A stretch of DNA of 64,000 bases from Escherichia coli. GTDB lineage: Bacteria > Pseudomonadota > Gammaproteobacteria > Enterobacterales > Enterobacteriaceae. Under the pieces are notes generated by a model. It made no database searches and had not been told where the DNA came from. It was given only the letters and a program-made list of their open reading frames with translations. Position 1 is the first letter of the stretch, and each line of letters opens with the position of its first letter. The DNA lies in assembly GCF_016026235.1 (NCBI RefSeq), contig NZ_CP065613.1; one strand, 5' to 3'. Of the stretch, positions 35,116-55,517 are shown one piece after another. The position numbers and the translations under genes were made by a program.

Positions 35116-35260
35116 GGGCCATCCTCTGTGCAAACAAGTGTCTCAATGGTACGTTTGGTATGGCATTAAAAGCAAGCAGACAGAACCGTTCTGATTGTTG
35201 TATGCATGTTTTTTTTATGCTTTCCTTAAGAACAACTCACCCCTTAAAGGAATAACCAGT

Positions 35261-35833
35261 TTGACACTGTCATCGCAACATTATCTGGTGATCACTGCGT
35301 TGGGTGCCGATCGCCCTGGAATTGTGAACACCATCACCCGTCATGTCAGTAGTTGCGGCTGTAATATTGAAGACAGTCGCCTGGCGATGCTGGGAGAAGA
35401 GTTCACGTTTATCATGCTGCTTTCCGGTTCATGGAATGCCATCACTCTGATTGAATCAACGTTACCGTTGAAAGGTGCCGAACTGGATCTTTTAATCGTG
35501 ATGAAGCGCACGACGGCGCGTCCGCGTCCGCCAATGCCAGCATCTGTCTGGGTTCAGGTCGATGTGGCAGACTCCCCGCATTTAATTGAACGCTTCACAG
35601 CACTTTTCGACGCGCATCATATGAACATTGCGGAGCTGGTGTCGCGCACGCAACCTGCTGAAAATGAACGGGCTGCGCAGTTGCATATTCAGATAACCGC
35701 CCACAGCCCCGCATCTGCGGACGCAGCAAATATTGAGCAAGCGTTCAAAGCCCTATGTACAGAACTCAATGCACAAGGCAGTATTAACGTCGTCAATTAT
35801 TCCCAACATGATGAACAGGATGGAGTTAAGTAA
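35261..35833 (+). CDS. gcvR: Glycine cleavage system transcriptional repressor GcvR
   Basis: ORF track 35195..35833; probable TTG start at 35261 (MTLSSQHYLVITALGADRPG) gives 190 aa; tandem ACT-like domains. Confidence 0.8.
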   Translation: MTLSSQHYLVITALGADRPGIVNTITRHVSSCGCNIEDSRLAMLGEEFTFIMLLSGSWNAITLIESTLPLKGAELDLLIVMKRTTARPRPPMPASVWVQVDVADSPHLIERFTALFDAHHMNIAELVSRTQPAENERAAQLHIQITAHSPASADAANIEQAFKALCTELNAQGSINVVNYSQHDEQDGVK

Positions 35834-36303
35834 TGAATCCACTGAAAGCCGGTGATATCGCACCGAAATTTAGCTTGCCGGATCAAGACAGAGAACAAGT
35901 TAATTTGACCGACTTCCAGGGACAGCGTGTTCTGGTTTATTTCTACCCGAAAGCCATGACCCCCGGCTGTACCGTACAGGCCTGCGGCTTACGCGATAAC
36001 ATGGATGAGTTGAAAAAAGCGGGCGTTGATGTGCTGGGTATCAGCACCGATAAACCCGAAAAACTCTCCCGTTTTGCGGAAAAAGAGCTGCTTAACTTTA
36101 CGCTCCTGTCTGATGAGGACCACCAGGTGTGCGAACAATTCGGCGTCTGGGGTGAAAAGTCCTTCATGGGCAAAACCTACGATGGCATTCATCGCATCAG
36201 CTTCCTGATTGACGCTGATGGCAAAATCGAACATGTCTTTGACGATTTCAAAACCAGCAATCACCACGACGTTGTGCTGAACTGGCTGAAAGAACACGCC
36301 TGA
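35833..36303 (+). CDS. bcp: Thiol peroxidase Bcp (peroxiredoxin)
   Basis: 156-aa ORF with PKAMTPGCT peroxidatic cysteine motif; TAATG overlap with gcvR. Confidence 0.92.
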   Translation: MNPLKAGDIAPKFSLPDQDREQVNLTDFQGQRVLVYFYPKAMTPGCTVQACGLRDNMDELKKAGVDVLGISTDKPEKLSRFAEKELLNFTLLSDEDHQVCEQFGVWGEKSFMGKTYDGIHRISFLIDADGKIEHVFDDFKTSNHHDVVLNWLKEHA

Positions 36304-36498
36304 TTACTTTGCTCCATTCCGTGCTGGCTGCGCTTGCGGCCAGCATACCTCACTTCTCGTGATCAAGATCACATTCTCGCTTTCCCCTGCGACACGGGTG
36401 TCGAATCCATTTTTTGCTGAACGTTAATGACCATCATTTTTGTACCGTTCAGAATCCAGTTAATTCATAACTTATTGAATATATTAAATTAATCAGAC

Positions 36499-36514
36499 TG
36501 GCATCCTTTATGCA
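36499..36514 (+). promoter_or_regulatory. Sigma-54 (-24/-12) promoter for the hyf operon
   Basis: TGGCAT-N7-TGCA with correct GG/GC spacing, about 40 bp upstream of the hyfA ATG; hyf encodes its own sigma-54 activator HyfR. Confidence 0.65.
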
Positions 36515-36555
36515 ATATGAAATGCAATGTTTCATATCATTTTCAAGGAGCCGAC

Positions 36556-37173
36556 ATGAACCGCTTTGTGGTGGCCGAACCACTGTGGTGTACAGGATGT
36601 AATACCTGTCTCGCTGTCTGTTCGGACGTGCATAAAACGCAAGGTTTACAGCAACACCCGCGCCTGGCCCTGGCGAAGACGTCAACACTCACTGCCCCTG
36701 TCGTGTGTCATCACTGTGAGGAAGCCCCTTGCCTGCAGGTCTGCCCGGTCAATGCCATCTCCCAGAGGGATGATGCGATCCAACTCAACGAAAGCCTCTG
36801 TATTGGCTGCAAGCTTTGCGCCGTGGTCTGCCCATTTGGCGCAATCAGCGCTTCAGGAAGCCGTCCGGTGAATGCCCCTGCGCAATATGTTTTTCAGGCT
36901 GAAGGCTCACTCAAAGACGGCGAAGAAAACGCGCCAACACAACATGCTTTGCTGCGCTGGGAACCGGGTGTCCAGACCGTCGCGGTGAAATGCGACCTGT
37001 GTGATTTCTTGCCAGAAGGTCCGGCCTGCGTTCGCGCTTGCCCGAATCAGGCGTTACGGCTGATCACCGACGATAGCCTGCAACGTCAGATGAAAGAAAA
37101 ACAGCGCCTTGCCGCAAGCTGGTTTGCCAATGGCGGGGAGGATCCCCTTTCCCTCACTCAGGAGCAACACTAA
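36556..37173 (+). CDS. hyfA: Hydrogenase-4 component A, 4Fe-4S ferredoxin-type
   Basis: 205-aa ORF with multiple CxxCxxCxxxCP motifs. Confidence 0.9.
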   Translation: MNRFVVAEPLWCTGCNTCLAVCSDVHKTQGLQQHPRLALAKTSTLTAPVVCHHCEEAPCLQVCPVNAISQRDDAIQLNESLCIGCKLCAVVCPFGAISASGSRPVNAPAQYVFQAEGSLKDGEENAPTQHALLRWEPGVQTVAVKCDLCDFLPEGPACVRACPNQALRLITDDSLQRQMKEKQRLAASWFANGGEDPLSLTQEQH

Positions 37174-39195
37174 TGGATGCCCTGCAATTATTAACCTGGT
37201 CGCTGATCCTCTATCTGTTTGCCAATCTGGCTTCGCTGTTTTTACTCGGTCTGGACAGACTGGCTATTAAGCTTTCCGGCATCACATCGCTGGTGGGCGG
37301 CGTGATTGGCATCATCAGCGGAATTACGCAATTACATGCTGGTGTAACTTTAGTCGCCCATTTTGCCACCCCTTTTGACTTTGCCGATTTAACCCTGCGA
37401 ATGGATAGCCTCTCGGCATTTATGGTGCTGGTTATCTCCTTGCTGGTGGTGGTTTGTTCGCTCTATTCATTGACTTATATGCGCGAATACGAGGGCAAAG
37501 GCGCGGCGGCGATGGGCTTCTTTATGAATCTTTTCATCGCATCGATGGTTGCCCTGCTGGTGATGGACAACGCTTTTTGGTTCATCGTGCTGTTTGAAAT
37601 GATGTCGCTGTCTTCCTGGTTTCTGGTCATTGCCAGGCAGGATAAAACGTCGATCAACGCTGGCATGCTCTACTTTTTTATCGCCCACGCCGGATCGGTG
37701 CTGATTATGATCGCCTTCTTGCTGATGGGGCGCGAAAGCGGCAGCCTCGATTTTGCCAGTTTCGCACGCTTTCACTTTCTCCGGGGCTGGCGTCGGCGGT
37801 GTTTCTGCTGGCCTTTTTCGGTTTTGGCGCGAAAGCCGGGATGATGCCGTTGCACAGCTGGTTGCCGCGCGCTCACCCTGCCGCACCATCGCACGCTTCG
37901 GCGTTGATGTCTGGCGTAATGGTCAAAATCGGTATTTTCGGCATCCTGAAAGTAGCGATGGATCTGCTGGCGCAAACGGGTTTGCCTCTGTGGTGGGGCA
38001 TTCTGGTGATGGCGATCGGCGCAATCTCCGCGCTCCTGGGCGTGCTATATGCGCTGGCGGAACAGGATATCAAACGGCTGCTGGCCTGGAGTACCGTCGA
38101 AAACGTCGGCATTATTTTGCTGGCAGTCGGTGTGGCGATGGACGGTCTGTCACTGCACGACCCGCTGCTCACCGTGGTTGGACTGCTCGGCGCACTGTTT
38201 CATCTGCTCAACCATGCGCTGTTCAAAGGGCTGCTATTTCTCGGCGCGGGCGCGATTATTTCGCGTTTGCATACCCACGACATGGAAAAAATGGGGGCAC
38301 TGGCGAAACGGATGCCGTGGACAGCCGCAGCATGCCTGATTGGTTGCCTCGCGATATCAGCCATTCCTCCGCTGAATGGTTTTATCAGCGAATGGTACAC
38401 CTGGCAGTCGCTGTTCTCACTAAGTCGTGTGGAAGCCGTAGCGCTACAACTTGCGGGTCCTATTGCTATGGTAATGCTGGCAGTCACTGGTGGGCTGGCA
38501 GTAATGTGCTTCGTAAAAATGTACGGTATTACTTTCTGTGGTGTGGTGCGCCGCGCAGTACACACGCTGAAGAGGCACAGGAAGTGCCAAATACGATGAT
38601 CGTCGCCATGCTACTGCTCGCGGCACTCTGCGTATTAATTGCGCTTAGTGCCAGTTGGCTGGCACCGAAGATAATGCATATTGCCCATGCGTTTACCAAT
38701 ACCCCTCCCGTCACTGTCGCCAGCGGAATAGCACTTGTACCCGGCACGTTTCATACACGGGTCACTCCTTCATTACTGTTGCTGTTACTACTGGCGATGC
38801 CTTTGCTGCCTGGCCTTTACTGGCTGTGGTGTCGTTCGCGCCGCGCAGCGTTTCGTCGCACAGGAGATGCCTGGGCATGCGGCTACGGCTGGGAAAATGC
38901 GATGGCCCCGTCAGGCAATGGCGTGATGCAGCCGCTGCGTGTGGTCTTTTCTGCGCTATTTCGTCTACGACAACAGCTCGACCCTACGCTGAGGCTAAAT
39001 AAAGGTCTTGCGCACGTCACCGCCAGGGCTCAGAGCACAGAACCCTTCTGGGATGAGCGGGTGATCCGCCCCATCGTGAGCGCCACCCAACGGCTGGCCA
39101 AAGAAATACAGCATCTGCAAAGCGGCGACTTTCGTCTCTATTGCCTGTATGTGGTCGCCGCACTGGTTGTGCTGCTAATCGCTATTGCCGTCTAA
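37173..39195 (+). pseudogene. hyfB: Hydrogenase-4 membrane subunit HyfB, disrupted by two frameshifts
   Basis: Three consecutive ORF segments in frames 0, 2 and 1 (37173..37844, about 37760..38547, about 38548..39195); total 2023 nt, which equals a 673-codon gene minus 1 plus 5. Confidence 0.8.
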
Positions 39196-39205
39196 GGAAA
39201 TCACC

Positions 39206-40153
39206 ATGAGACAAACTCTTTGCGACGGATATCTGGTCATTTTTGCGTTAGCACAGGCCGTGATTCTGCTGATGCTAACCCCACTTTTTACGGGTATTTC
39301 CCGGCAGATACGCGCGCGTATGCACTCCCGCCGCGGGCCGGGGATCTGGCAGGATTATCGCGATATCCACAAACTGTTTAAACGCCAGGAAGATGCGCCG
39401 ACATCTTCAGGTCTGATGTTCCGCCTGATGCCGTGGGTATTAATCAGCAGCATGCTGGTGCTGGCGATGGCCCTACCACTATTTATTACCGTTTCCCCTT
39501 TTGCGGGCGGCGGCGATCTGATCACCCTTATCTATCTTCTTGCCCTGTTTCGTTTTTTCTTTGCTCTTTCAGGGCTGGATACCGGAAGCCCGTTTGCGGG
39601 AGTCGGTGCCAGTCGCGAGTTGACGCTCGGCATTCTGGTCGAACCCATGCTCATTCTCTCACTGCTGGTATTGGCGCTGATAGCAGGTTCCACGCATATC
39701 GAGATGATCAGCAATACGCTGGCAACGGGCTGGAACTCGCCGCTAACCACCGTACTGGCGTTACTGGCCTGTGGTTTTGCCTGCTTCATTGAGATGGGAA
39801 AAATTCCCTTTGATGTTGCTGAAGCAGAACAGGAATTACAGGAAGGCCCGCTGACAGAATATTCCGGTGCCGGGCTGGCGCTGGCGAAATGGGGGCTGGG
39901 GCTGAAACAGGTCGTGATGGCAGCACTGTTTGTGGCCCTGTTTCTGCCCTTTGGGCGCGCGCAAGAACTTTCTCTCGCCTGCCTGCTGACTTCACTTGTC
40001 GTTACGCTGCTCAAGGTTTTGCTGATTTTTGTACTGGCCTCAATCGCAGAAAACACGCTGGCACGCGGGCGTTTTTTACTCATTCACCATGTGACCTGGC
40101 TTGGCTTCAGCCTTGCTGCGCTTGCATGGGTCTTCTGGTTAACCGGTCTGTAA
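39206..40153 (+). CDS. hyfC: Hydrogenase-4 membrane subunit HyfC (NuoH-like)
   Basis: ORF track 39185..40153; start at MRQTLCDGYLVIF gives 315 aa. Confidence 0.88.
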   Translation: MRQTLCDGYLVIFALAQAVILLMLTPLFTGISRQIRARMHSRRGPGIWQDYRDIHKLFKRQEDAPTSSGLMFRLMPWVLISSMLVLAMALPLFITVSPFAGGGDLITLIYLLALFRFFFALSGLDTGSPFAGVGASRELTLGILVEPMLILSLLVLALIAGSTHIEMISNTLATGWNSPLTTVLALLACGFACFIEMGKIPFDVAEAEQELQEGPLTEYSGAGLALAKWGLGLKQVVMAALFVALFLPFGRAQELSLACLLTSLVVTLLKVLLIFVLASIAENTLARGRFLLIHHVTWLGFSLAALAWVFWLTGL

Positions 40154-40169
40154 GGAGCACTGACGGAAT

Positions 40170-41608
40170 ATGGAAAATCTTGCTCTGACGACGTTATTGC
40201 TGCCTTTTATCGGCGCACTGGTCGTTTCGTTTTCGCCACAACGTCGGGCCGCCGAATGGGGGGTTTTGTTCGCCGCGCTGACCACGCTGTGCATGTTGTC
40301 GCTGATCTCCGCGTTTTATCAGGCCGATAAAGTTGCCGTCACGTTGACGTTGGTCAACGTGGGGGATGTGGCATTGTTTGGCCTGGTCATTGATCGCGTG
40401 AGTACGCTGATTCTGTTTGTGGTGGTGTTTCTCGGTTTGCTGGTCACGATCTACTCCACGGGTTATCTGACGGATAAAAATCGCGAACACCCGCATAACG
40501 GCACGAATCGTTATTACGCATTTTTGCTGGTGTTTATCGGCGCGATGGCGGGACTGGTACTCTCCTCGACGCTGCTCGGTCAGTTGTTGTTTTTTGAAAT
40601 TAGGGCGGCTGCTCCTGGGCGTTGATCAGTTATTACCAGAGCGATAAAGCGCAGCGTTCAGCACTAAAAGCGTTGCTTATCACCCATATCGGTTCGTTGG
40701 GGTTGTATCTTGCCGCCGCCACGCTGTTTTTGCAGACCGGAACGTTTGCGCTTAGCGCAATGAGCGAGTTACACGGCGACGCACGTTATCTGGTTTATGG
40801 CGGGATCCTGTTTGCCGCGTGGGGGAAATCGGCCCAGCTACCGATGCAAGCGTGGCTACCGGATGCAATGGAAGCGCCAACACCGATCAGCGCCTATCTC
40901 CACGCCGCATCGATGGTGAAAGTGGGCGTTTACATTTTTGCCCGCGCAATTATCGACGGCGGCAATATCCCGCATGTGATTGGCGGCGTTGGCATGGTCA
41001 TGGCACTGGTCACCATTCTTTATGGCTTTCTGATGTATTTGCCACAGCAGGATATGAAGCGGTTGCTGGCCTGGTCGACCATCACTCAACTTGGCTGGAT
41101 GTTCTTCGGCTTGTCGCTCTCCATCTTCGGCTCGCGGCTGGCGCTGGAGGGTAGCATCGCCTACATCGTCAACCACGCGTTCGCTAAAAGCCTGTTTTTC
41201 CTTGTAGCAGGTGCGCTGAGTTACAGCTGCGGCACGCGCTTGTTGCCGCGTCTGCGTGGCGTATTGCACACCCTGCCGTTGCCAGGCGTGGGTTTCTGCG
41301 TGGCAGCGCTGGCGATTACCGGCGTGCCGCCGTTCAACGGCTTCTTCAGTAAATTCCCGCTGTTTGCTGCCGGTTTTGCGTTGTCAGTGGAGTACTGGAT
41401 CCTGCTGCCCGCCATGATTCTGCTGATGATTGAATCGGTCGCCAGTTTCGCCTGGTTTATTCGCTGGTTTGGTCGCGTTGTGCCTGGCAAACCGAGCGAG
41501 GCCGTCGCCGATGCCGCACCGCTGCCAGGGTCAATGCGCCTGGTGTTGATTGTACTGATTGTGATGTCGCTGATTTCCAGCGTAATCGCCGCGACCTGGT
41601 TGCAGTAA
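40170..41608 (+). pseudogene. hyfD: Hydrogenase-4 membrane subunit HyfD, disrupted by one frameshift
   Basis: Two ORF segments (40170..40625 and 40622..41608) in different frames; total 1439 nt, which equals a 480-codon gene minus 1. Confidence 0.8.
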
Positions 41609-41619
41609 GGAGATGATGA

Positions 41620-42270
41620 ATGACCGGTTCTATGATCGTAAATAATCTGGCGGGACTGATGATGCTGACATCGCTGTTTGTGATTAGCGTCAAAAGCTAT
41701 CGCCTGTCATGCGGATTTTACGCCTGCCAGTCGCTGGTGCTGGTGTCTATTTTCGCCACTCTCTCGTGCCTGTTCGCCGCAGAGCAACTGCTGATCTGGT
41801 CCGCCAGCGCCTTTATCACCAAAGTGCTGCTGGTACCGTTAATCATGACTTACGCTGCACGAAATATTCCCCAGAACATCCCGGAAAAAGCGTTATTCGG
41901 TCCGGCAATGATGGCACTGCTCGCGGCGTTAATTGTCCTGCTTTGCGCATTTGTCGTTCAGCCCGTGAAGCTACCGATGGCTACCGGGCTGAAACCGGCG
42001 CTGGCGGTAGCGTTAGGTCATTTTCTGCTTGGCCTGCTGTGCATTGTCAGCCAGCGCAATATCCTGCGGCAAATTTTTGGTTACTGCCTGATGGAAAACG
42101 GCTCCCATCTGGTGCTGGCGCTTCTTGCCTGGCGAGCACCGGAACTGGTGGAAATAGGTATCGCTACCGACGCCATCTTCGCCGTCATTGTGATGGTGTT
42201 ACTGGCAAGAAAAATATGGCGTACCCACGGCACGCTGGACGTGAACAACTTGACCGCGCTGAAGGGATAA
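41620..42270 (+). CDS. hyfE: Hydrogenase-4 membrane subunit HyfE
   Basis: 216-aa hydrophobic ORF; operon position. Confidence 0.88.
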
Positions 42271-42274
42271 TGAG

Positions 42275-43855
42275 ATGAGTTATTCTGTGATGTTCGCTTT
42301 ACTCCTGCTCACGCCGCTGCTTTTTTCGCTGCTCTGTTTTGCCTGCCGGAAACGGGGGCTCTCTGCGACTTGTACGGTGACTGTATTACATAGCTTAGGG
42401 ATCACACTGCTGCTGATTCTAGCACTCTGGGTGGTCCAAACTGCCGCTGATGCAGGAGAAATATTCGCTGCGGGACTGTGGCTTCATATTGATGGTCTGG
42501 GCGGTTTGTTCCTCGCCATTCTTGGTGTGATTGGCTTTCTCACCGGTGTTTACTCGATTGGCTACATGCGTCATGAAGTGGCACACGGCGAGCTTTCACC
42601 CGTTACGCTGTGCGATTACTACGGTTTCTTCCATCTGTTTTTGTTCACCATGCTGCTGGTTGTTACCAGCAATAACCTGATTGTGATGTGGGCGGCGATC
42701 GAAGCCACCACCTTAAGCTCGGCGTTTCTGGTAGGCATTTACGGTCAGCGTTCATCGCTGGAAGCTGCATGGAAGTACATCATTATTTGTACTGTTGGTG
42801 TCGCTTTTGGTCTGTTCGGTACCGTGCTGGTATACGCCAACGCCGCCAGCGTTATGCCGCAGGCAGAAATGGCGATATTCTGGAGCGAGGTTCTTAAGCA
42901 ATCGTCCTTGCTTGACCCAACATTAATGCTGTTGGCCTTTGTGTTTTTGCTAATTGGCTTTGGTACCAAAACCGGGCTATTTCCCATGCACGCCTGGCTG
43001 CCGGATGCTCACAGTGAAGCGCCGAGTCCGGTCAGCGCCCTGCTCTCCGCCGTATTGCTGAACTGCGCGCTGTTGGTGCTGATTCGCTATTACATCATTA
43101 TTTGCCAGGCCATCGGCAGCGATTTCCCCAACCGGTTGTTGCTCATCTTCGGCATGTTGTCGGTTGCCGTGGCGGCATTTTTCATTCTGGTACAGCGGGA
43201 CATTAAGCGTCTGCTGGCGTACTCCAGCGTGGAGAACATGGGGCTGGTCGCGGTGGCGCTAGGCATTGGCGGGCCGCTGGGAATTTTTGCCGCGCTGCTG
43301 CACATCTTAAACCACAGTCTGGCAAAAACGCTGCTGTTCTGCGGTTCCGGCAATGTACTGCTCAAGTACGGCACGCGCGATCTCAACGTCGTCTGTGGGA
43401 TGCTCAAAATCATGCCATTTACCGCCGTGCTGTTTGGCGGCGGTGCGCTGGCGCTGGCAGGGATGCCGCCCTTCAACATTTTTCTTAGCGAATTTATGAC
43501 CATTACCGCCGGACTGGCACGTAATCACCTGCTGATTATCGTCCTGCTGTTATTGCTGTTAACGCTGGTGCTGGCGGGCCTGGTACGGATGGCAGCGCGG
43601 GTGTTAATGGCGAAACCGCCGCAGGCCGTTAACCGGGGTGATCTCGGCTGGTTGACCACCTCGCCAATGGTGATTCTGCTGGTCATGATGCTGGCGATGG
43701 GAACGCATATTCCACAACCTGTCATCAGGATCCTGGCGGGCGCTTCCACTATAGTCCTCTCAGGGACGCACGACCTGCCTGCACAACGTAGCACCTGGCA
43801 TGATTTTTTGCCTTCAGGCACCGCATCTGTTTCGGAGAAACACAGTGAACGTTAA
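42275..43855 (+). CDS. hyfF: Hydrogenase-4 membrane subunit HyfF (NuoL/M/N-like antiporter module)
   Basis: 526-aa polytopic ORF. Confidence 0.88.
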
Positions 43856-45512
43856 TTCATCGTCAAATCGTGGCGAAGCGATTCTCGCCGCCCTGAAAAC
43901 GCAGTTCCCCGGCGCGGTGCTGGATGAAGAGCGACAAACGCCTGAACAGGTCACCATTACGGTGAAAATCAATCTGCTGCCTGACGTTGTACATTATCTT
44001 TATTATCAACATGATGGCTGGCTTCCAGTCCTGTTTGGCAACGACGAGCGGACACTTAACGGTCATTACGCGGTTTATTATGCCCTTTCAATGGAAGGGG
44101 CCGAAAAATGCTGGATCGTGGTGAAGGCACTGGTCGATGCCGACAGTCGGGAGTTTCCGTCAGTCACACCGCGCGTCCCTGCCGCGGTCTGGGGCGAGCG
44201 AGAAATTCGCGATATGTACGGGCTGATTCCGGTTGGCCTGCCGGATCAGCGTCGCCTGGTGTTGCCCGATGACTGGCCGGAAGATATGCATCCGCTGCGC
44301 AAAGATGCGATGGATTATCGACTGCGCCCTGAACCGACGACAGATTCCGAAACGTATGCGTTTATCAATGAGGGCAACAGCGATGCGCGGGTGATCCCTG
44401 TCGGCCCGCTGCATATCACCTCCGATGAACCGGGTCACTTCCGCTTGTTTGTGGATGGCGAGCAAATTGTCGATGCTGATTACCGCCTGTTATATGTCCA
44501 TCGCGGCATGGAGAAACTGGCAGAAACGCGGATGGGCTACAACGAAGTGACCTTCTTATCGGACCGCGTGTGTGGGATTTGCGGTTTTGCCCACAGTGTG
44601 GCCTATACCAACTCGGTTGAAAATGCACTGGGGATTGAGGTGCCGCAACGAGCACATACTATTCGCTCGATTCTGCTGGAAGTCGAACGGCTACACAGTC
44701 ATTTGCTTAACCTTGGCCTCTCCTGCCATTTCGTTGGTTTTGATACCGGCTTTATGCAATTTTTCCGCGTGCGGGAAAAGTCGATGACGATGGCGGAATT
44801 GCTGATCGGGTCGCGTAAAACCTACGGTCTGAATCTGATTGGTGGTGTTCGCCGCGATATTCTCAAAGAGCAACGTCTGCAAACGCTGAAACTGGTGCGC
44901 GAGATGCGCGCCGACGTGTCGGAGCTGGTAGAGATGCTGCTTGCTACGCCGAATATGGAACAACGCACTCAGGGCATTGGCATTCTCGACCGACAAATCG
45001 CCCGTGATTTGCGCTTTGATCACCCCTACGCCGACTACGGCAATATTCCAAAAACACTGTTTACCTTTACCGGCGGCGATGTTTTCTCCCGCGTGATGGT
45101 CCGTGTCAAAGAGACGTTTGATTCGCTGGCAATGCTGGAATTTGCCCTCGACAACATGCCGGATACCCCACTGCTGACCGAAGGCTTTAGCTATAAACCT
45201 CACGCATTCGCGCTGGGCTTTGTTGAAGCGCCACGCGGTGAAGACGTGCACTGGAGCATGCTCGGTGATAACCAAAAATTGTTCCGCTGGCGCTGCCGTG
45301 CCGCCACCTACGCCAACTGGCCGGTGTTGCGTTACATGCTGCGCGGCAATACCGTTTCTGACGCACCGCTGATTATCGGTAGCCTTGATCCCTGCTACTC
45401 CTGTACCGACCGTGTGACGCTGGTAGATGTGCGCAAGCGCCAGTCAAAAACCGTGCCGTATAAAGAGATCGAACGCTACGGCATTGATCGTAACCGTTCA
45501 CCGCTGAAGTAA
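43845..45512 (+). CDS. hyfG: Hydrogenase-4 large [NiFe] catalytic subunit HyfG
   Basis: ORF track 43800..45512; probable GTG start at 43845 gives 555 aa; [11 protein letters not shown]-terminal and [10 protein letters not shown]-terminal Ni-binding motifs. Confidence 0.88.
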
Positions 45513-45521
45513 GGACAGAAG

Positions 45522-46067
45522 ATGCTGAAGTTACTGAAAACTATTATGCGCGCCGGAACCGCGACGGTGAAATATCCCTTCGCGCCACTGGAGGTCAGCC
45601 CAGGCTTTCGCGGGAAACCGGACCTGATGCCCAGCCAATGTATTGCCTGCGGTGCCTGCGCCTGTGCTTGTCCGGCAAATGCGCTGACTATCCAGACCGA
45701 CGACCAGCAAAATTCGCGCACCTGGCAGCTCTATCTGGGGCGTTGTATTTACTGCGGACGTTGTGAAGAAGTGTGTCCGACCAGAGCCATCCAGCTTACC
45801 AATAACTTTGAACTGACCGTCACCAATAAAGCCGATCTCTATACCCGCGCGACGTTCCATCTACAACGTTGCAGCCGTTGCGAACGCCCGTTTGCCCCGC
45901 AAAAAACCGTCGCACTGGCTGCTGAATTGTTGGCACAGCAACAAAATGCGCCACAAAACCGCGAAATGTTATGGGCGCAAGCGAGCGTCTGCCCGGAGTG
46001 CAAACAACGCGCGACGCTGCTCAACGACGATACAGATGTACCGCTGGTGGCTAAGGAGCAGCTATGA
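45522..46067 (+). CDS. hyfH: Hydrogenase-4 Fe-S subunit HyfH
   Basis: 181-aa ORF with [12 protein letters not shown] and [12 protein letters not shown] motifs. Confidence 0.9.
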
Positions 46068-46822
46068 GTCCAGTGCTTACACAACATGTCAGCCAGCCCA
46101 TCACGCTGGACGAGCAAACGCAAAAGATGAAGCAGCATTTGCTACAGGATATCCGTCGCTCGGCTTACGTTTATCGCGTCGATTGCGGCGGCTGCAACGC
46201 CTGTGAAATCGAAATTTTTGCTGCCATCACCCCCGTATTCGACGCAGAACGTTTTGGCATTAAGGTTGTTTCATCACCGCGTCACGCCGATATTTTGTTA
46301 TTTACTGGCGCAGTCACTCGGGCGATGCGTATGCCTGCACTTCGGGCGTATGAGTCTGCCCCCGATCATAAAATCTGTGTTTCCTACGGCGCGTGCGGTG
46401 TCGGCGGCGGTATTTTCCACGATCTCTACAGCGTCTGGGGCGGCAGCGACACCATTGTCCCCATTGATGTTTGGATCCCCGGCTGCCCGCCAACACCGGC
46501 CGCCACCATTCACGGTTTCGCCGTGGCGCTCGGTTTGCTGCAACAGAAGATTCACGCTGTGGATTATCGCGATCCCACCGGGGTGACTATGCAACCGTTG
46601 TGGCCGCAGATCCCGCCATCACAGCGTATCGCCATTGAGCGAGAAGCGCGGCGGCTGGCGGGCTATCGTCAGGGGCGAGAAATTTGCGATCGGCTCCTGC
46701 GCCATTTAAGCGACGATCCTACAGGAAATCGGGTTAACACCTGGTTGCGCGATGCCGACGATCCACGTCTCAATAGTATCGTTCAGCAACTCTTTCGCGT
46801 ACTCCGGGGGTTACATGACTGA
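46064..46822 (+). CDS. hyfI: Hydrogenase-4 small subunit HyfI (NuoB-like)
   Basis: 252-aa ORF with [16 protein letters not shown] and GCPP motifs. Confidence 0.9.
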
Positions 46823-47228
46823 AGAGTGCGGGGAAATTGTTTTCTGGACGCTGCGAAAAAAGTTTGTCGCCAGTAGCGACGAGATGCCGGAACACAGCTC
46901 TCAGGTAATGTATTACTCGCTGGCTATCGGCCATCACGTTGGCGTGATTGATTGTCTGAATGTCGCCTTCCGCTGCCCACTGACGGAATACAAAGATTGG
47001 CTTGCACTGGTCGAAGAGGAGCAAGCCCGACGTAAGATGCTGGGGGTGATGACTTTTGGTGAGATTGTTATTGACGCCAGCCACACCGCCCTGTTGACCC
47101 GGGCATTCGCGCCACTGGCAGATGACGCGACGTCTGTGTGGCAAGCGCGTAGCATTCAATTCATTCATCTGTTGGATGAAATTGTGCTGGAACCGGCTAT
47201 CTATCTGATGGCCAGAAAAATTGCGTGA
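46815..47228 (+). CDS. hyfJ: HyfJ (HycH-like hydrogenase maturation/processing protein)
   Basis: ORF track 46752..47228; start at [11 protein letters not shown] gives 137 aa. Confidence 0.8.
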
Positions 47229-47257
47229 GAAGGATTTCTCATTAATAAGGACTGTTG

Positions 47258-49269
47258 ATGGCTATGTCAGACGAGGCGATGTTTGCCCCGCCGCAAGGAA
47301 TAACAATTGAAGCGGTAAACGGAATGCTCGCGGAGCGGTTAGCGCAGAAACACGGCAAGGCGTCTTTATTACGCGCCTTCATCCCGCTGCCGCCGCCGTT
47401 CAGCCCGGTACAACTTATTGAACTGCATGTTCTCAAAAGCAACTTCTATTACCGCTACCATGATGATGGCAGCGATGTGACGGCAACAACAGAGTATCAG
47501 GGCGAGATGGTCGATTATTCGCGTCACGCCGTCCTTCTCGGCAGTAGTGGAATGGCGGAGCTACGCTTTATTCGTACCCACGGCAGCCGTTTTACTCCCC
47601 AGGATTGCACACTGTTTAACTGGCTGGCACGCATTATCACTCCGGTTCTGCAATCATGGCTCAATGATGAAGAACAACAGGTGGCGCTGCGTTTGCTGGA
47701 GAAAGATCGCGATCATCATCGGGTACTGGTTGATATTACTAATGCAGTGCTGTCACATCTTGATCTCGACGATCTGATCGCTGACGTCGCTCGTGAGATC
47801 CATCATTTTTTCGGTCTGGCTTCAGTCAGTATGGTACTGGGCGATCATCGAAAGAACGAGAAGTTTAGCCTGTGGTGCAGCGATCTTTCTGCCTCACATT
47901 GTGCGTGTCTGCCACGCAATATGCCTGGCGACAGTGTATTGCTGACACAAACGCTACAAACCCGACAACCGACCTTGACGCACCGTGCAGACGTCTGTTT
48001 CTCTGGCAACGCGACCCGTTATTACTCTTACTTGCATCTAACGGCTGCGAATCTGCGCTCCTTATACCGCTTACCTTTGGCAACCATACACCGGGTGCAT
48101 TGTTGCTGGCGCATACCTCTTCCACTCTCTTTAGTGAGGAAAACTGCCAGCTACTACAACACATAGCCGATCGCATCGCTATTGCCGTTGGCAATGCCGA
48201 TGCCTGGCGTAGAATGACCGATTTGCAGGAAAGTTTGCAGCAAGAAAACCACCAGCTTAGCGAGCAGCTCCTTTCGAATCTGGGCGTCGGTGACATTATC
48301 TATCAAAGCCAGGCAATGGAAGACCTACTCCAGCAGGTAGATATTGTGGCGAAGAGCGACAGTACGGTGTTGATTTGCGGTGAAACCGGAACCGGCAAAG
48401 AGGTGATCGCCAGAGCGATCCATCAACTTAGCCCGCGACGCGACAAGCCGCTGGTCAAAATCAACTGCGCTGCCATCCCCGCCAGTCTTCTGGAAAGTGA
48501 GTTATTCGGTCATGACAAAGGAGCGTTTACTGGTGCGATTAATACCCATCGTGGTCGTTTTGAAATTGCCGATGGCGGCACGTTGTTTCTCGATGAAATT
48601 GGCGATCTGCCGTTAGAACTTCAGCCTAAACTGCTGCGCGTATTGCAGGAACGGGAGATTGAGCGTCTCGGCGGGAGTAGAACGATCCCGGTAAATGTCA
48701 GAGTCATTGCCGCCACCAACCGTGATTTGTGGCAAATGGTTGAAGATCGCCAGTTTCGCAGCGATCTCTTTTATCGCCTGAATGTCTTCCCACTGGAATT
48801 GCCGCCGCTGCGCGACCGTCCGGAAGATATCCCTCTTTTAGCAAAGCATTTCACGCAAAAAATGGCGCGCCATATGAATCGTTCAATTGACGCCATCCCG
48901 ACCGAGGCGCTACGCCAGTTGATGTCGTGGGACTGGCCGGGCAACGTGCGCGAGCTGGAAAACGTGATTGAGCGAGCGGTACTGCTGACTCGCGGTAACA
49001 GTCTGAATTTACATCTTAATGTCCGACAAAGCCGTTTACTGCCGACGCTAAATGAAGATTCAGCGCTTCGCAGTTCAATGGCGCAGTTGCTGCACCCGAC
49101 GACGCCAGAGAATGACGAAGAAGAACGTCAGCGCATTGTTCAGGTATTGCGAGAAACCAATGGCATTGTTGCCGGGCCCCGTGGCGCGGCGACACGATTA
49201 GGGATGAAGCGCACCACGCTGCTGTCACGAATGCAGCGTCTGGGGATCTCGGTTCGCGAGGTGTTGTAA
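47258..49269 (+). pseudogene. hyfR: Sigma-54-dependent activator HyfR (GAF + AAA+ + HTH), disrupted by one frameshift in the GAF region
   Basis: Two overlapping ORF segments in different frames (47255..48166 and 47872..49269); total 2012 nt, which equals a 671-codon gene minus 1; the downstream segment has the sigma-54 activator motifs GETGTGKE and GAFTGA. Confidence 0.8.
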
Positions 49270-49290
49270 TCTGCTTTTGCAGGAGTATGC

Positions 49291-50139
49291 ATGAGAAACA
49301 AACTCTCTTTCGACTTGCAGTTGAGCGCCAGAAAAGCGGCAATCGCTGAACGGATTGCCGCCCATAAAATTGCCCGCAGTAAAGTGTCGGTCTTTTTAAT
49401 GGCGATGTCCGCTGGCGTGTTTATGGCGATCGGATTTACTTTTTACCTTTCCGTTATCGCCGATGCCCCGTCTTCACAGGCATTAACCCATCTGGTGGGC
49501 GGCCTTTGCTTTACACTCGGCTTTATTTTGCTGGCGGTTTGCGGCACCAGCCTGTTCACCTCGTCGGTAATGACGGTGATGGCAAAAAGTCGGGGCGTTA
49601 TTAGTTGGCGAACTTGGCTGATTAACGCACTTCTGGTGGCCTGTGGTAATCTGGCAGGTATTGCCTGTTTCAGTTTGTTAATCTGGTTTTCCGGGCTGGT
49701 GATGAGTGAAAACGCGATGTGGGGAGTCGCGGTTTTACACTGCGCCGAGGGCAAAATGCATCATACATTTACTGAATCTGTCAGCCTCGGCATTATGTGC
49801 AATCTGATGGTTTGCCTGGCGCTGTGGATGAGTTATTGCGGGCGTTCGTTATGCGACAAAATCGTCGCCATGATTTTGCCCATCACCCTGTTTGTCGCCA
49901 GTGGCTTTGAGCACTGTATCGCCAATTTGTTTGTGATTCCGTTCGCCATTGCCATTCGCCATTTCGCCCCTACCTCCTTCTGGCAACTGGCGCACAGTAG
50001 CGCAGACAATTTTCCGGCACTGACGGTCAGCCATTTTATTACCGCCAATCTGCTCCCGGTGATGCTGGGTAATATTATCGGCGGTGCAGTGCTGGTGAGT
50101 ATTTGTTATCGGGCTATTTATTTACGTCAGGAATCCTGA
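49291..50139 (+). CDS. focB: Formate channel FocB (FNT family)
   Basis: 282-aa polytopic ORF at the end of the hyf operon. Confidence 0.88.
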   Translation: MRNKLSFDLQLSARKAAIAERIAAHKIARSKVSVFLMAMSAGVFMAIGFTFYLSVIADAPSSQALTHLVGGLCFTLGFILLAVCGTSLFTSSVMTVMAKSRGVISWRTWLINALLVACGNLAGIACFSLLIWFSGLVMSENAMWGVAVLHCAEGKMHHTFTESVSLGIMCNLMVCLALWMSYCGRSLCDKIVAMILPITLFVASGFEHCIANLFVIPFAIAIRHFAPTSFWQLAHSSADNFPALTVSHFITANLLPVMLGNIIGGAVLVSICYRAIYLRQES

Positions 50140-50176
50140 AAAATCAGCCCGGCGAAACAGTTCGTCGGGCTGAAGA

Positions 50177-51238
50177 TTATTCTTGCGCGATTTGCCCATC
50201 GGGCCAGGCGTGGATCACGGCTTTGATCAGCGTCGCCAATGGAATGGCGAAGAATACGCCCCAGAATCCCCACAAACCACCGAAGATCACCACCGATAAA
50301 ATAATCACCAGCGGATGCAGGTTAACCGCTTCGGAGAACAACACCGGTACTAGCAGGTTGCCGTCCAGCGCCTGAATAATCAGATACACCGCGAAGCAGC
50401 TCCAGAATTCCGTGCCTGCGCCAAACTGGAATAGCGCCACGCCAACCACCGGAATGGTCACCACAAATGCGCCAATGTACGGAATAAGAACCGAGAAGCC
50501 GACCAGCACCGCCAGCAGCAGCGAATAGTTCAGCCCAAAGAGCAAGAACCCCAGCCAGGTGGCGATCCCCACCACGATCATCTCCAGCACTTTGCCGCGG
50601 ATATAGTTGGTGATTTGTTGATTCATCTCCTTCCACACCTGTCCTGCCAGTCCACGGTTGCGCGGCAGCACCCGACGAACGGCGTTCAGCATCTGCTCTT
50701 TGTCTTTCAGCAGGAAGAAGACCATCAATGGCACCAGCACCAGATAGACGGCAATGGTCAGCAAACCGACCAGCGAGGCGAGGGAAATTTTCACCACCGA
50801 ATCGCCCATGGTCAGCATCCGACTGCGCATATTTTCGGCCATTGCATCAATAATGCCCGCGTCCATTAACGCCGGATAGCGGCGCGGCAACGTGGCGGCA
50901 AAGTCAGAAAGCTTATTGAGCATCCCCGGCATATCGCGGATTAAGTAGATGCCCTGTTGCCAGGCGATAGGCAGTACCACGAACGCCATCAGTAGCAATA
51001 TACCGACAAAAACCACCAATACAATCGACGTCGCCCAGCGGCGGGAGCAGCCAATAGATTGCAGGCGCACGGTTGGCCATTCCAGCAAATAGGCCAGCAC
51101 AATAGCCACCAGCAACGGAGCAAGCAGGCCACTAAAGAAAAAGATAATGCCAAATCCGGCAACTAAAATAACCAGCAAGGCAATCGCTTCCGGGTCGCTA
51201 AAACGGCGGCGATACCATTGCATCAACATTTCGAGCAT
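50177..51238 (-). CDS. perM: Putative permease PerM (AI-2E/UPF0118 family)
   Basis: 353-aa polytopic ORF. Confidence 0.85.
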   Translation of the reverse strand: MLEMLMQWYRRRFSDPEAIALLVILVAGFGIIFFFSGLLAPLLVAIVLAYLLEWPTVRLQSIGCSRRWATSIVLVVFVGILLLMAFVVLPIAWQQGIYLIRDMPGMLNKLSDFAATLPRRYPALMDAGIIDAMAENMRSRMLTMGDSVVKISLASLVGLLTIAVYLVLVPLMVFFLLKDKEQMLNAVRRVLPRNRGLAGQVWKEMNQQITNYIRGKVLEMIVVGIATWLGFLLFGLNYSLLLAVLVGFSVLIPYIGAFVVTIPVVGVALFQFGAGTEFWSCFAVYLIIQALDGNLLVPVLFSEAVNLHPLVIILSVVIFGGLWGFWGVFFAIPLATLIKAVIHAWPDGQIAQE

Positions 51239-51450
51239 AAAAACCTTCCCTGAACCTCAAGAGCGGGATTGCGATCCGCAATTGTATCGAAATGTCACAA
51301 AAAAGACTTCGCTTTTTATGACGGATTCAGGAAACTGAAAAGTCATTTGAGTGGGCTAATCTTCGCCGTTACACTCAAAGGCGGCGCGGTGGGAACGATA
51401 TTTAACAGTATCGGTCAAATGACTATCTTCAGAAATACAGGATAGAGGTT

Positions 51451-52914
51451 ATGTTCAGGCAGTTGAAAAAAAACCTGGTTGCAACCCTCATTGCTGCTAT
51501 GACCATTGGTCAGGTAGCCCCGGCGTTTGCCGACAGCGCAGACACCTTGCCGGATATGGGAACCTCCGCAGGAAGCACGCTTTCCATTGGTCAGGAAATG
51601 CAGATGGGCGACTATTATGTCCGCCAGCTACGCGGCAGCGCGCCGTTAATTAATGACCCGCTGTTAACGCAATATATTAATTCGCTGGGGATGCGTCTGG
51701 TTTCGCATGCCAATTCGGTTAAGACACCGTTTCATTTTTTTCTGATCAACAACGACGAAATTAACGCCTTTGCTTTCTTTGGCGGCAACGTGGTGCTGCA
51801 CTCTGCCCTGTTCCGTTATTCCGATAACGAAAGTCAACTGGCTTCAGTTATGGCGCACGAAATCTCCCACGTCACCCAACGTCACCTGGCGCGAGCGATG
51901 GAAGATCAACAACGCAGCGCGCCGCTGACCTGGGTCGGCGCGTTAGGTTCTATTTTACTGGCGATGGCCAGTCCGCAGGCGGGGATGGCGGCGCTGACCG
52001 GTACACTGGCGGGAACACGTCAGGGGATGATCAGTTTCACCCAGCAAAATGAACAGGAAGCGGACCGCATTGGTATTCAGGTGCTGCAACGCTCGGGATT
52101 CGATCCGCAGGCGATGCCAACCTTCCTCGAAAAATTACTCGATCAGGCGCGTTACTCCTCGCGCCCGCCGGAAATTTTATTGACTCACCCGTTGCCGGAA
52201 AGTCGTCTGGCAGATGCCCGCAACCGTGCTAATCAGATGCGACCGATGGTGGTGCAGTCGTCGGAAGATTTCTATCTGGCGAAAGCGCGCACACTGGGGA
52301 TGTATAATTCCGGACGTAACCAGCTCACCAGTGATTTGCTGGATGAATGGGCGAAAGGAAACGTTCGTCAGCAACGAGCGGCGCAATATGGTCGTGCTTT
52401 ACAGGCGATGGAAGCCAATAAATACGACGAGGCGCGTAAAACGCTGCAACCGTTACTGGCGGCAGAACCTGGCAACGCATGGTATCTCGATCTGGCTACC
52501 GATATCGATCTTGGGCAAAACAAAGCCAATGAGGCAATCAATCGCCTGAAAAATGCCCGTGATTTGCGCACCAATCCGGTGTTGCAGCTCAACCTGGCAA
52601 ACGCTTATCTGCAAGGCGGTCAACCACAAGAAGCGGCCAATATTCTCAATCGCTACACCTTTAATAATAAAGATGACAGCAACGGCTGGGATTTACTGGC
52701 ACAGGCGGAAGCCGCGCTAAATAACCGCGATCAGGAGCTGGCTGCGCGAGCAGAAGGTTATGCGCTCGCCGGACGACTCGATCAGGCCATTTCGCTGTTG
52801 AGTAGCGCCAGTTCGCAGGTGAAATTAGGCAGCCTGCAACAAGCGCGTTACGATGCGCGCATCGACCAGTTGCGCCAGCTGCAGGAACGCTTTAAGCCTT
52901 ATACCAAGATGTAA
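51451..52914 (+). CDS. bepA: Periplasmic metalloprotease/chaperone BepA (M48 peptidase with TPR domain)
   Basis: 487-aa ORF with signal peptide and [10 protein letters not shown] zinc motif. Confidence 0.9.
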
Positions 52915-52934
52915 TTCGCATTAAAGGAAGAACA

Positions 52935-53294
52935 ATGACCAAACAGGTAAAAATCTACCATAACCCACGCTGTTCAAAGAGCCGGGAAACGCTGAACCTG
53001 CTGAAAGAAAACGGCGTGGAGCCAGAAGTGGTACTCTACCTTGAGACACCCGCCGATGCGGCAACGCTGCGCGATTTGCTGAAAATGCTGGGGATGAATA
53101 GCGCCCGTGAATTGATGCGCCAGAAAGAGGATCTTTATAAAGAACTGAACCTGGCTGACAGTTCGCTTAGCGAAGAGGCGCTGATTCAGGCAATGGTGGA
53201 TAATCCGAAGCTGATGGAGCGCCCGATTGTGGTCGCGAATGGCAAAGCGCGGATTGGTCGTCCACCGGAGCAGGTACTGGAAATCGTGGGTTAA
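52935..53294 (+). CDS. yfgD: ArsC-family arsenate reductase-like protein YfgD
   Basis: 119-aa ORF with an N-terminal HNPRCSKS motif. Confidence 0.85.
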   Translation: MTKQVKIYHNPRCSKSRETLNLLKENGVEPEVVLYLETPADAATLRDLLKMLGMNSARELMRQKEDLYKELNLADSSLSEEALIQAMVDNPKLMERPIVVANGKARIGRPPEQVLEIVG

Positions 53295-53322
53295 GATGTG
53301 CTCCATCGCTAGTTGAAGCACA

Positions 53323-53422
53323 TTGCCGGATGCGACGCTTGCCATGTCTTATCCGGCCTACGAATACTATGGATTAACTTCGCGTAGTTCGGATAAGGCG
53401 TTCGCGCCGCATCCGACAATAA
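53323..53422. repeat. REP/BIME palindromes
   Basis: TGCCGGATGCGACGCTTGCC...TTATCCGGCCTAC and GTTCGGATAAGGCGTTCGCGCCGCATCCGAC. Confidence 0.8.
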
Positions 53423-53431
53423 ACACCTTAT

Positions 53432-54133
53432 CTACAACTTCAGAATTTCTTTCACAAACGGAATGGTCAGCTTACGTTGCGCGGTAATCGACGCACGATC
53501 CAACTGATCCAACGTCATAAATAGCGTGCGCATTTCTCTGTCGAGCCGCTTCAGCAAGAAACGCCCCACATCTTCCGGCAGTTCAAAACCACGCAAACGC
53601 GCGCGTAACTGTAGCGCCTGCAACTTATCTTCATCAGAAAGTGGCTGCAATTTGTAGATCTGCCCCCAGTCGAGTCGCGACGCGAGATCCGGTAATCCCA
53701 GATTCAACTGCCGCGGTGGACGATCGCCGGTGATCAACAATCGTGTTTTGCCCGATTCCAGAATTCGATTGTAGAGATCGAAAATCGCCATCTCCCACAA
53801 CTCATCGCCTGCAATACACTCAATGTTGTCGATACAGACCAGCGACAAATGCTCCATACCGTCGAGCACTTCCGGAACAAACCAGGTGCGTTTATCCAGC
53901 GGGACATAGCCCACCGCATCGCCACGCTGCGACAATTCCGCGCAAGCCGCGTGCAGCAGATGGCTGCGCCCCGCGCCTTCGCGTGCCCAGAGATAGATGT
54001 AACCGCTATGTTCCTGACGCAGCACGTTTTGCAGCGCGGCCAGTAAAGAGGAGTTATCCCCCGGCCAGAAACTTGCAAAGGTTTCGTCGTCAGGAAGATA
54101 AAGTGGCAAAGAGAGCTGTGCCGGTGTGTTCAG
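53432..54133 (-). CDS. hda: DnaA-inactivating protein Hda (RIDA factor), AAA+ family
   Basis: ORF track 53432..54178 (248 aa from an upstream ATG); I recall Hda initiating at an internal CUG ([11 protein letters not shown]...), which gives 233 aa; the start is uncertain. Confidence 0.75.
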
Positions 54134-54227
54134 AGATACCTCAACCAGGATTTCACAAAATCGCGAGAAGTTTACCACAGAATCCCATGATGTTTGAACC
54201 GGGCAGCAACACTGCCCGGTCGGTACA

Positions 54228-55517
54228 TTATTTGTCTGTTATATCCGCGTCTTCTGCGTCCAGCACCACTTCTTCAGGGCGCAGCACACTGATCAGTTTG
54301 AAAATCAAACTTAAGCCGATACCGACGATGGTCGCCAGCGCCATACCTTTTAACTCCGCCGCGCCGATGTTTACCTTCGCGCCACTGACGCCGATGATCA
54401 AAATCACGGAAGTCAGGATCAGGTTCTGTGCTTTGTTGTAATCCACTTTCGATTCGATCAAAACACGAATACCGGAAGCACCGATGACACCATAAAGCAG
54501 CAGCGAAACGCCGCCCATCACCGGCAATGGGATCATCTGGATAGCGGCAGCCAGTTTACCGACGCAGGAAAGCAGGATAGCGAAAATCGCCGCCCCGCCG
54601 ATAACCCAGGTACTGTAAACACGGGTGATCGCCATCACGCCAATGTTTTCTCCGTAAGTGGTATTTGGCGTGGAGCCAAAGAAGCCGGAGATCACGGTCG
54701 ACAGGCCGTTAGCAAACATCGAACGGTGCAGACCTGGATCGCGCAGCAGATCTTTTTTGACGATATTAGCCGTTACTACCAGGTGCCCTACGTGTTCGGC
54801 AATAACCACTAACGCCGCTGGCAGAATAGTCAGAATGGCAAACCACTCGAAGCGCGGCGTATAGAGGGTTGGCAGCGCAAACCAGTGAGCATTAATAATC
54901 GGCGTGGTATCGACAATTCCCATTGCGAAAGAGAGCGCGTAGCCCACCAGCACGCCAATTAAAATCGGGATAATTGCCAGGAAACCACGAAACAGCACGG
55001 AACCTAAAACCGTGACCGCCAGGGTGGTAATAGAGATGATGATGGTTTTGGAGTCTGGCGTTTGCCCTTCAGCCGGGAGTAAACCCGCCATACCGGCAGC
55101 TACGCCCGCCAGCTCCAGACCGATGACGGCAACGATTGCGCCCATTGCCGCAGGTGGAAACAGCACGTCCAGCCAGCCGGTCCCCGCTTTCTTCACGATA
55201 AAAGAAACCAGGCAGAACAGCACGCCGCACATAATAAAGCCGCCCAGCGCGACTTCATACCCTAACGGCAACAGTAACAATACCGGTGAAATAAAGGCAA
55301 AGCTGGAACCAAGATAAGCCGGAATTTTCCCTTTACAGATGAAGAGATACAGCAGCGTTCCAATACCGTTAAATAACAGTACAGTCGCCGGGTTAATATG
55401 AAATAAGACGGGCACCAGGACGGTTGCACCAAACATGGCGAACAAATGTTGCAAACTAAGCGGGATTGTCTGTAAAAGTGGCGGTCTTTCACTCACCCCG
55501 ATAGCACGGCGCGTCAT
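54228..55517 (-). CDS. uraA: Uracil:H+ symporter UraA
   Basis: ORF track 54228..55559; start at [16 protein letters not shown] gives 429 aa; NCS2 family. Confidence 0.9.

Follow-up and report, generated by a model that had tools for sequence, protein, structure and literature searches.

The lesion in hyfD

In the stretch of Escherichia coli DNA analysed here (the window, 64,000 nucleotides of contig NZ_CP065613.1), the gene for hydrogenase-4 subunit D breaks in the middle of its reading frame, and the question arises whether it is a genuine inherited pseudogene, a product of sequencing or assembly, or a gene whose subunit is still made by an unusual route. The gene is annotated by PGAP as 'frameshifted' and lies at 40170..41608 on the + strand, where it comprises 1439 nt, compared with 1440 nt for hyfD of K-12 MG1655. 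A preliminary description had proposed a frameshift by a 1-bp deletion, noting that this span is one nucleotide short of a 480-codon gene; both points are borne out by the alignment with K-12, which contains one gap only, directly after A40602 (ATT A-G GGC GGC in the window, ATT ACA GGC GGC in K-12), at the place of the missing middle C of Thr145.

Codons 1-144 are translated in the native frame at 40170..40601 (+) and cover TM1-4 together with the first half of TM5, ending in ...LLFFE143-I144. They are followed by the two nucleotides AG at 40602..40603 (+), which had been described as standing in place of a codon and which alignments with K-12, SE11 and 13 other strains identify as the rest of Thr145 (ancestral ACG), with the C between both bases deleted. 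Codons 146-479 and the stop codon, located at 40604..41608 (+), are now in the -1 frame and contain nearly all of the Proton_antipo_M domain, as revealed by translation and Pfam. In terms of homology, the gene is composed of 144 codons, the AG at 40602-40603, and 334 codons plus the stop from 40604 onwards. The 151- and 328-codon segments reported before agree with the list of open reading frames, which gives 40170..40625 (151 aa, starting with ATG) and 40622..41608 (328 aa, starting with TTG), and can now be refined to the homologous 144 and 334 codons: the first figure counts seven out-of-frame residues before the TGA stop at 40623-40625, and the second begins at the first start-like codon, a TTG six codons past the point where homology resumes.

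From position 40584, the frame set by the ATG at 40170 reads TTG TTG TTT TTT GAA ATT AGG GCG GCT GCT CCT GGG CGT TGA, the part at 40602..40625 (+) being translated into the out-of-frame tail RAAAPGR and terminated by the TGA. At the protein level, frame 0 yields ...LLFFEIRAAAPGR* and frame 2 yields ...*GGCSWALISYYQ...; the fuller translations are ...LLGQLLFFEIRAAAPGR* for frame 0 and ...*N*GGCSWALISYYQSDKAQ... for the frame offset by two, which continues until the stop at 41606-41608. The letters at the site are ATTAGGGC in the deletion state and ATTACGGGC in the C-present state.

Alignment with intact hyfD alleles, which had been suggested as a check, returned the same one-base gap, and codon 145 was intact (ACG or ACA) in all eight strains examined that do not carry the deletion, these belonging to several lineages. 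The codon encodes Thr and is ACG in most strains and ACA in K-12. Since six strains that are intact at the site, namely BL21(DE3), O157:H7 2149, O111:NM FWSEC0005, 2012C-4606, IMT16316, and 2-C14-1, all read ATT ACG GGC, the lost base can be assigned to the middle C of an ACG codon. It was a lone C, flanked by A and GGG and outside any homopolymer run, and the deletion is therefore not a homopolymer contraction. Chance is not at issue, as the gap is a deterministic result of alignment against thousands of orthologues.

Predicted consequences for the HyfD protein

The identity of the gene is well supported. It is situated between hyfC and hyfE in a region that is collinear with K-12 for 16 kb (98.96% identity), in agreement with the annotation of the closest genome; locus and gene order (hyfABCDEFGHIJR-focB) are those of K-12 hyfD, which encodes the antiporter-like subunit of hydrogenase-4 / formate hydrogenlyase-2 (FHL-2) (b2484, NP_416979.1). 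Restoring the C yields a window protein with 100% identity to K-12 HyfD, the two genes being separated by 15 synonymous and no nonsynonymous differences. The repaired protein contains, like that of K-12, Proton_antipo_N (PF00662) at residues 70-103 and Proton_antipo_M (PF00361) at residues 133-413, the latter also being found in the 328-aa open reading frame with E=1e-50. The window gene differs from K-12 hyfD in its missing base and broken frame, and in that the ancestor of the deletion allele had ACG at Thr145 where K-12 has ACA. An uninterrupted frame of about 479 codons is absent from the window, as the frame breaks at codon 145.

Using phmmer, HyfD was aligned with E. coli NuoL (3rko_L) at E=7e-47, and ...LLFFE143ITGGCSWALISYY of HyfD was paired with ...YLGWE144GVGLCSYLLIGFY of NuoL. 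NuoL E144 is the conserved glutamate in transmembrane helix 5 of the antiporter-like subunits. NuoL/M/N of Complex I and MrpA/D of Mrp belong to the same fold family, and HyfD E143 corresponds to NuoL E144 in a motif of the form W/F-E-x-x-G-x-C-S; while those proteins are intact and functional, the window hyfD is truncated directly past that glutamate. The break is located two codons past Glu143, and since this residue aligns with the TM5 glutamate of NuoL, the frameshift cuts the gene in the middle of TM5. All residues beyond the cut are read out of frame, among them those aligned with the remainder of the ion-translocation module.

Ribosomes starting at 40170 would thus read 144 native codons, add seven wrong ones and halt at 40623-40625. 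The predicted product is a 151-aa stub consisting of TM1-4 and half of TM5, with almost no Proton_antipo_M, and it would lack the antiporter-like module, that is, everything past the TM5 glutamate. We infer that functional HyfD is not made by the deletion allele.

Further lesions in the hyf operon of the window

Relative to K-12, the hyf operon of the window (compared over 36556-50139) contains three further frameshifting indels, two in hyfB and one in hyfR. The hyfB pseudogene (37173..39195, +) was recognised by alignment and is annotated by PGAP as 'frameshifted' in the nearest genome; its two lesions, also identified by alignment, are a 1-nt deletion between 37762 and 37763 (+), by which TTTCCGC became TTTCGC, and a tandem duplication of the 5-nt unit TGTGG (TGTGG TGTGG) at 38537-38541 (+). 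The pseudogene of hyfR, the sigma-54 activator of the operon (47258..49269, +), has a 1-nt deletion between 47993 and 47994, again seen in the alignment and labelled 'frameshifted' in the nearest genome. Among complete genomes, both the hyfB duplication and the hyfR deletion occur only in FDAARGOS_943. The hyfB 1-nt deletion is much more widespread, with exact matches of its 71-mer in 1254 of 4292 complete E. coli genomes, which makes it commoner than the hyfD lesion, and it is also present on unrelated hyfD haplotypes such as that of strain 720632; with this distribution and the label 'frameshifted' in five other records, it was dismissed as a private change or an error. Because hyfB, encoding the core membrane subunit, and the activator gene hyfR are frameshifted in addition to hyfD, hydrogenase-4 is presumably dead in the window strain, and the operon (hydrogenase-4 / FHL-2) is, judged from its sequence, non-functional as a whole.

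In the window region 43845-46067, hyfG and hyfH show in-frame polymorphisms among strains. A 48-nt insertion lengthens hyfG in SE11, HUSEC2011, O157, and IMT16316, a deletion shortens hyfH by 6 nt in SE11 and BL21, and the window agrees with K-12 in both genes. Possessing the K-12 state at hyfG and hyfH but an SE11-like hyfD, the window therefore provides evidence of recombination within the operon. As a separate observation on variation among strains, a vapBC toxin-antitoxin pair is located between ypfJ and purC in some of them, for example HUSEC2011, RM8082, and O111, and was not found between these two genes in the K-12-like 720632, BL21, O157, and IMT16316.

Null alleles of hyf across the species

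Lesion frequencies were determined as the number of genomes containing the exact 71-mer, and 16 strains, eight carriers of the hyfD codon-145 deletion and eight non-carriers, were compared for combinations of lesions. Besides the 1254 genomes with the hyfB 1-nt deletion, a G deletion at codon 30 of hyfD was present in at least 994 genomes, the C deletion at codon 145 in 351, a T deletion in hyfI in at least 681, and a T deletion in focB in at least 624. The codon-30 lesion, which reduces a run of six G to five and is found in BL21(DE3), resembles the codon-145 lesion as a 1-bp inactivating deletion at high frequency, but affects another site, lies in a homopolymer run and is of independent origin; it is absent from the window, and some strains carry both. 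Further lesions in the sampled strains were a C deletion in hyfC, the loss of 208 nt from hyfD, and stop codons within hyfC or hyfF.

These lesions recur in mosaic combinations in the 16 strains. In each of the eight strains with the codon-145 deletion, one or more other hyf genes are broken as well, and in four of the eight hyfD itself has a second lesion, namely the codon-30 G deletion, accompanied in two of these four by the 208-nt deletion. SE11 and HUSEC2011 also possess a frameshifted focB, with an internal stop in hyfC in the latter, while the window and FDAARGOS_943 have the broken hyfB and hyfR. A fully intact operon was encountered in only three of the 16 strains, K-12, IMT16316, and O157:H7 2149, all of them non-carriers. 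In about 1130 of 5426 genomes, hyfD is missing altogether, in line with a report that phylogroup B2 lacks hyfABCDEFGHIJ (PMC2617782).

Selection and the persistence of the deletion

Pairwise Nei-Gojobori counts for hyfA-focB in the 16 strains gave pN/pS values of 0.058 for hyfD and 0.030 for hyfE, with a range of 0.03-0.35 for the hyf genes. Together with the exclusively synonymous differences between the hyfD genes of the window and K-12, these low values show that most of the diversity arose under purifying selection. This implies that the operon would have been under such selection until recently and that the null alleles are probably young relative to nucleotide diversity. Variants private to carriers amount to three nonsynonymous and seven synonymous changes in hyfD, and these ten in eight carriers are too few to reveal a relaxation of constraint. 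This scarcity is the main weakness of the argument for a hyfD pseudogene, and it is offset by the secondary lesions. Beyond the indel, the window hyfD reveals no coding decay, which fits a young lesion but, taken alone, fits continued constraint as well.

We infer that the loss of hyfD persists through weak or absent selection on hydrogenase-4 in the carrier lineages. A different answer would be that the loss of hyf is adaptive rather than neutral, the null alleles including the hyfD deletion being favoured by selection, for example by sparing the cell the expense of large membrane proteins or by reducing FHL-2 to an FHL-1-like core. Such a view leaves the identity of the lesion untouched and departs from our explanation only on the reason for its persistence, and we regard it as unlikely. 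Several different null alleles have reached high frequency (in hyfB 1254 genomes, in hyfD at least 994 and 351, in hyfI at least 681, and in focB at least 624), the SNP pattern testifies to strong purifying selection in the past, and phylogroup B2 lacks the operon entirely (PMC2617782). Moreover, a deletion of hyfDEF in Pectobacterium atrosepticum slightly raised H2 production and HyfG levels (PMC7384014). However, hitch-hiking with successful clones and recombination can lift neutral null alleles to such frequencies, collections of complete genomes are heavily biased, and the operon is reportedly poorly expressed in K-12, which predicts a near-neutral loss.

Could the reading frame be rescued?

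One way to keep hyfD working would be a split gene, in which products of 151 aa and about 328 aa are made by termination and reinitiation at the TTGA of 40622-40625 and assemble into a working subunit. The stop codon TGA (40623-40625) does overlap a TTG of the resumed frame (40622-40624), which is the sole suggestive feature of the sequence; only seven residues would be lost, and the downstream coding sequence of hyfD in the window is undamaged. Nevertheless, no Shine-Dalgarno-like motif was detected before 40622 or before the other restart codons in the resumed frame within the next 200 nt, six candidates (ATG/GTG/TTG) in all, and a restart was discarded on this ground. The cut inside TM5, directly past the conserved glutamate, leaves half a helix missing, four of the eight carriers have the extra frameshift or the 208-nt deletion in hyfD described above, and hyfB and hyfR are broken in the window strain anyway. 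On either side of the break, the sequence does not differ from that of intact alleles, which shows that nothing has adapted to a split. We therefore consider this explanation very unlikely. The preliminary description had itself raised the possibility that hyfD is naturally two genes in this lineage, and there is no sign of it, given the missing Shine-Dalgarno-like restart, the cut in TM5 and the further lesions in half of the carriers.

The same site was scanned for slippery heptamers of the form X_XXY_YYZ, for stops in all frames, and for a stable fold in the 100 nt downstream in comparison with shuffled sequence. In the -1 frame, stops are located near the site at 40595-40597 (TGA) and 40601-40603 (TAG), and a productive shift would therefore be possible only within 40604-40622. 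Neither in this stretch nor elsewhere in the N-terminal open reading frame of hyfD was such a heptamer present, and the 100 nt downstream gave an MFE of -21.1, compared with a mean of -24.1 for shuffled sequence (z=+0.8), which means no stimulatory structure stabler than the latter. The outcome for programmed frameshifting and slippage is given at the end of the next section.

Sharing and origin of the deletion allele

With a 71-nt query centred on the deletion, the stretch was located in 4047 complete E. coli genomes, 351 of which matched it exactly; the K-12 version was matched exactly in 900 genomes, and most of the remaining genomes differ from the window 71-mer by the one-base gap alone. 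Among the carriers are SE11, HUSEC2011 (O104:H4), and cattle, soil, and human isolates collected on several continents, and the nine carrier records examined represent more than one country, host, and submission. PGAP labels hyfD as 'frameshifted' in every one of the eight annotated carriers that were inspected, SE11 and HUSEC2011 among them. The hyfD genes of SE11 (ECSE_RS14415), HUSEC2011 (HUS2011_RS30000), and FDAARGOS_943 (I6H00_RS25600) have the identical deletion at the same position and a length of 1439 nt. That of SE11 differs from the window gene by 2 nt, that of FDAARGOS_943 (NZ_CP065615.1) is 100% identical to it, and thousands of other E. coli hyfD genes show 95-99.9% identity. FDAARGOS_943 is the closest complete genome, with nine SNPs, mostly transitions, and no indels over 19.5 kb (window 35170-54660), and, alone among complete genomes, it has the hyfB duplication and the hyfR deletion in common with the window. 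The window would thus come from a very close relative of it or from a separate assembly of the same strain.

In an alignment of the whole operon from the eight carriers and eight non-carriers, the deletion was the sole site fixed in carriers and missing from non-carriers, and all eight carriers agreed without exception over at least 292 nt surrounding it. Because of this shared tract, and because the deletion is the only carrier-fixed site, the comparison indicates a single origin of the allele, followed by recombination into different backgrounds.

Against this distribution, it is highly improbable that the deletion is an error of sequencing or assembly and that the real hyfD of the sample is intact. 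Single-base indels are the commonest assembly error, and the window is byte-identical to no complete genome, differing from FDAARGOS_943 at the nine SNPs mentioned. But a deletion shared by 351 complete genomes is not private to one assembly or technology, it sits on a shared local haplotype, and the lost base, a single C between A and GGG, is not part of a homopolymer run. An artefact, and with it the intact frame in the real sample that the preliminary description had named as a refutation, was rejected on the population sharing.

A return to full-length HyfD by programmed -1 ribosomal frameshifting or by transcriptional slippage is, in our view, extremely improbable and was discarded on the heptamer scan, the stop map and the downstream fold. 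The needed direction is indeed a -1 shift, a T6 run (40590-40595) is found 7 nt upstream, and the site itself has the rare codon AGG. However, an extra U in this run leads to an immediate TGA, the only productive stretch is devoid of a slippery heptamer, the fold is no stabler than shuffled sequence, and the frameshift is a derived, minority state within one species (351/4047) that is not conserved across relatives.

Relation to known systems and significance

Taken together, the loss at codon 145 is, with high confidence, a genuine inherited 1-bp deletion, transmitted both vertically and by recombination, which makes hyfD a pseudogene. The allele would have arisen once on an ACG background and is now present in a subset of E. 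coli (351/4047) in varied haplotype mosaics, alongside other common null alleles of the hyf (hydrogenase-4 / FHL-2) operon. It is an ordinary shared pseudogene in a dispensable, widely decaying operon, and it is already known insofar as RefSeq annotates the exact allele as a frameshifted pseudogene and a high pseudogene frequency has been published (PMC13322260). In that pangenome study from 2026, covering 2377 E. coli genomes, hyfD was among the metabolic genes of highest pseudogene frequency, and reaction diversity of formate hydrogenlyase was localised to HyfD (PMC13322260). Our search of the literature for a hyfD frameshift or a hyf operon pseudogene returned nothing specific, and for a hyfD pseudogene it led to this study.

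E. coli hydrogenase-4 has been described as hard to study, due to poor native expression and a missing accessory gene (PMC7384014), and the same paper cites Self et al. 2004 for hyf as a silent operon. In Pectobacterium atrosepticum, deletion of hyfDEF did not lower the hydrogen production of FHL-2 (PMC7384014), and by analogy the loss of HyfD alone may be tolerated.

For users of genome annotations, these results mean that 'hyfD, frameshifted' denotes a real inherited allele and not a mistake of assembly. The FHL-2 reaction should be removed from metabolic models of the window lineage and from predictions of its phenotype. Convenient markers of lineage and recombination are also provided by the deletion, as well as by further hyf indels shared among strains. 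A bolder reading, which we put forward only tentatively and consider rather unlikely, is that at least five independent, high-frequency null alleles of hyf, shuffled by recombination, reflect that hydrogenase-4 / FHL-2 is being given up throughout the species, a recent process that is still under way and that selection may have favoured. On this reading, SE11-like strains, having lesions in hyfD and focB only, might keep a working FHL-1-like core enzyme without HyfD, comparable to the hyfDEF mutant of Pectobacterium. The presence of many common null alleles in an operon that was well conserved until recently may bear on whether hydrogenase-4 has a physiological role in E. coli.
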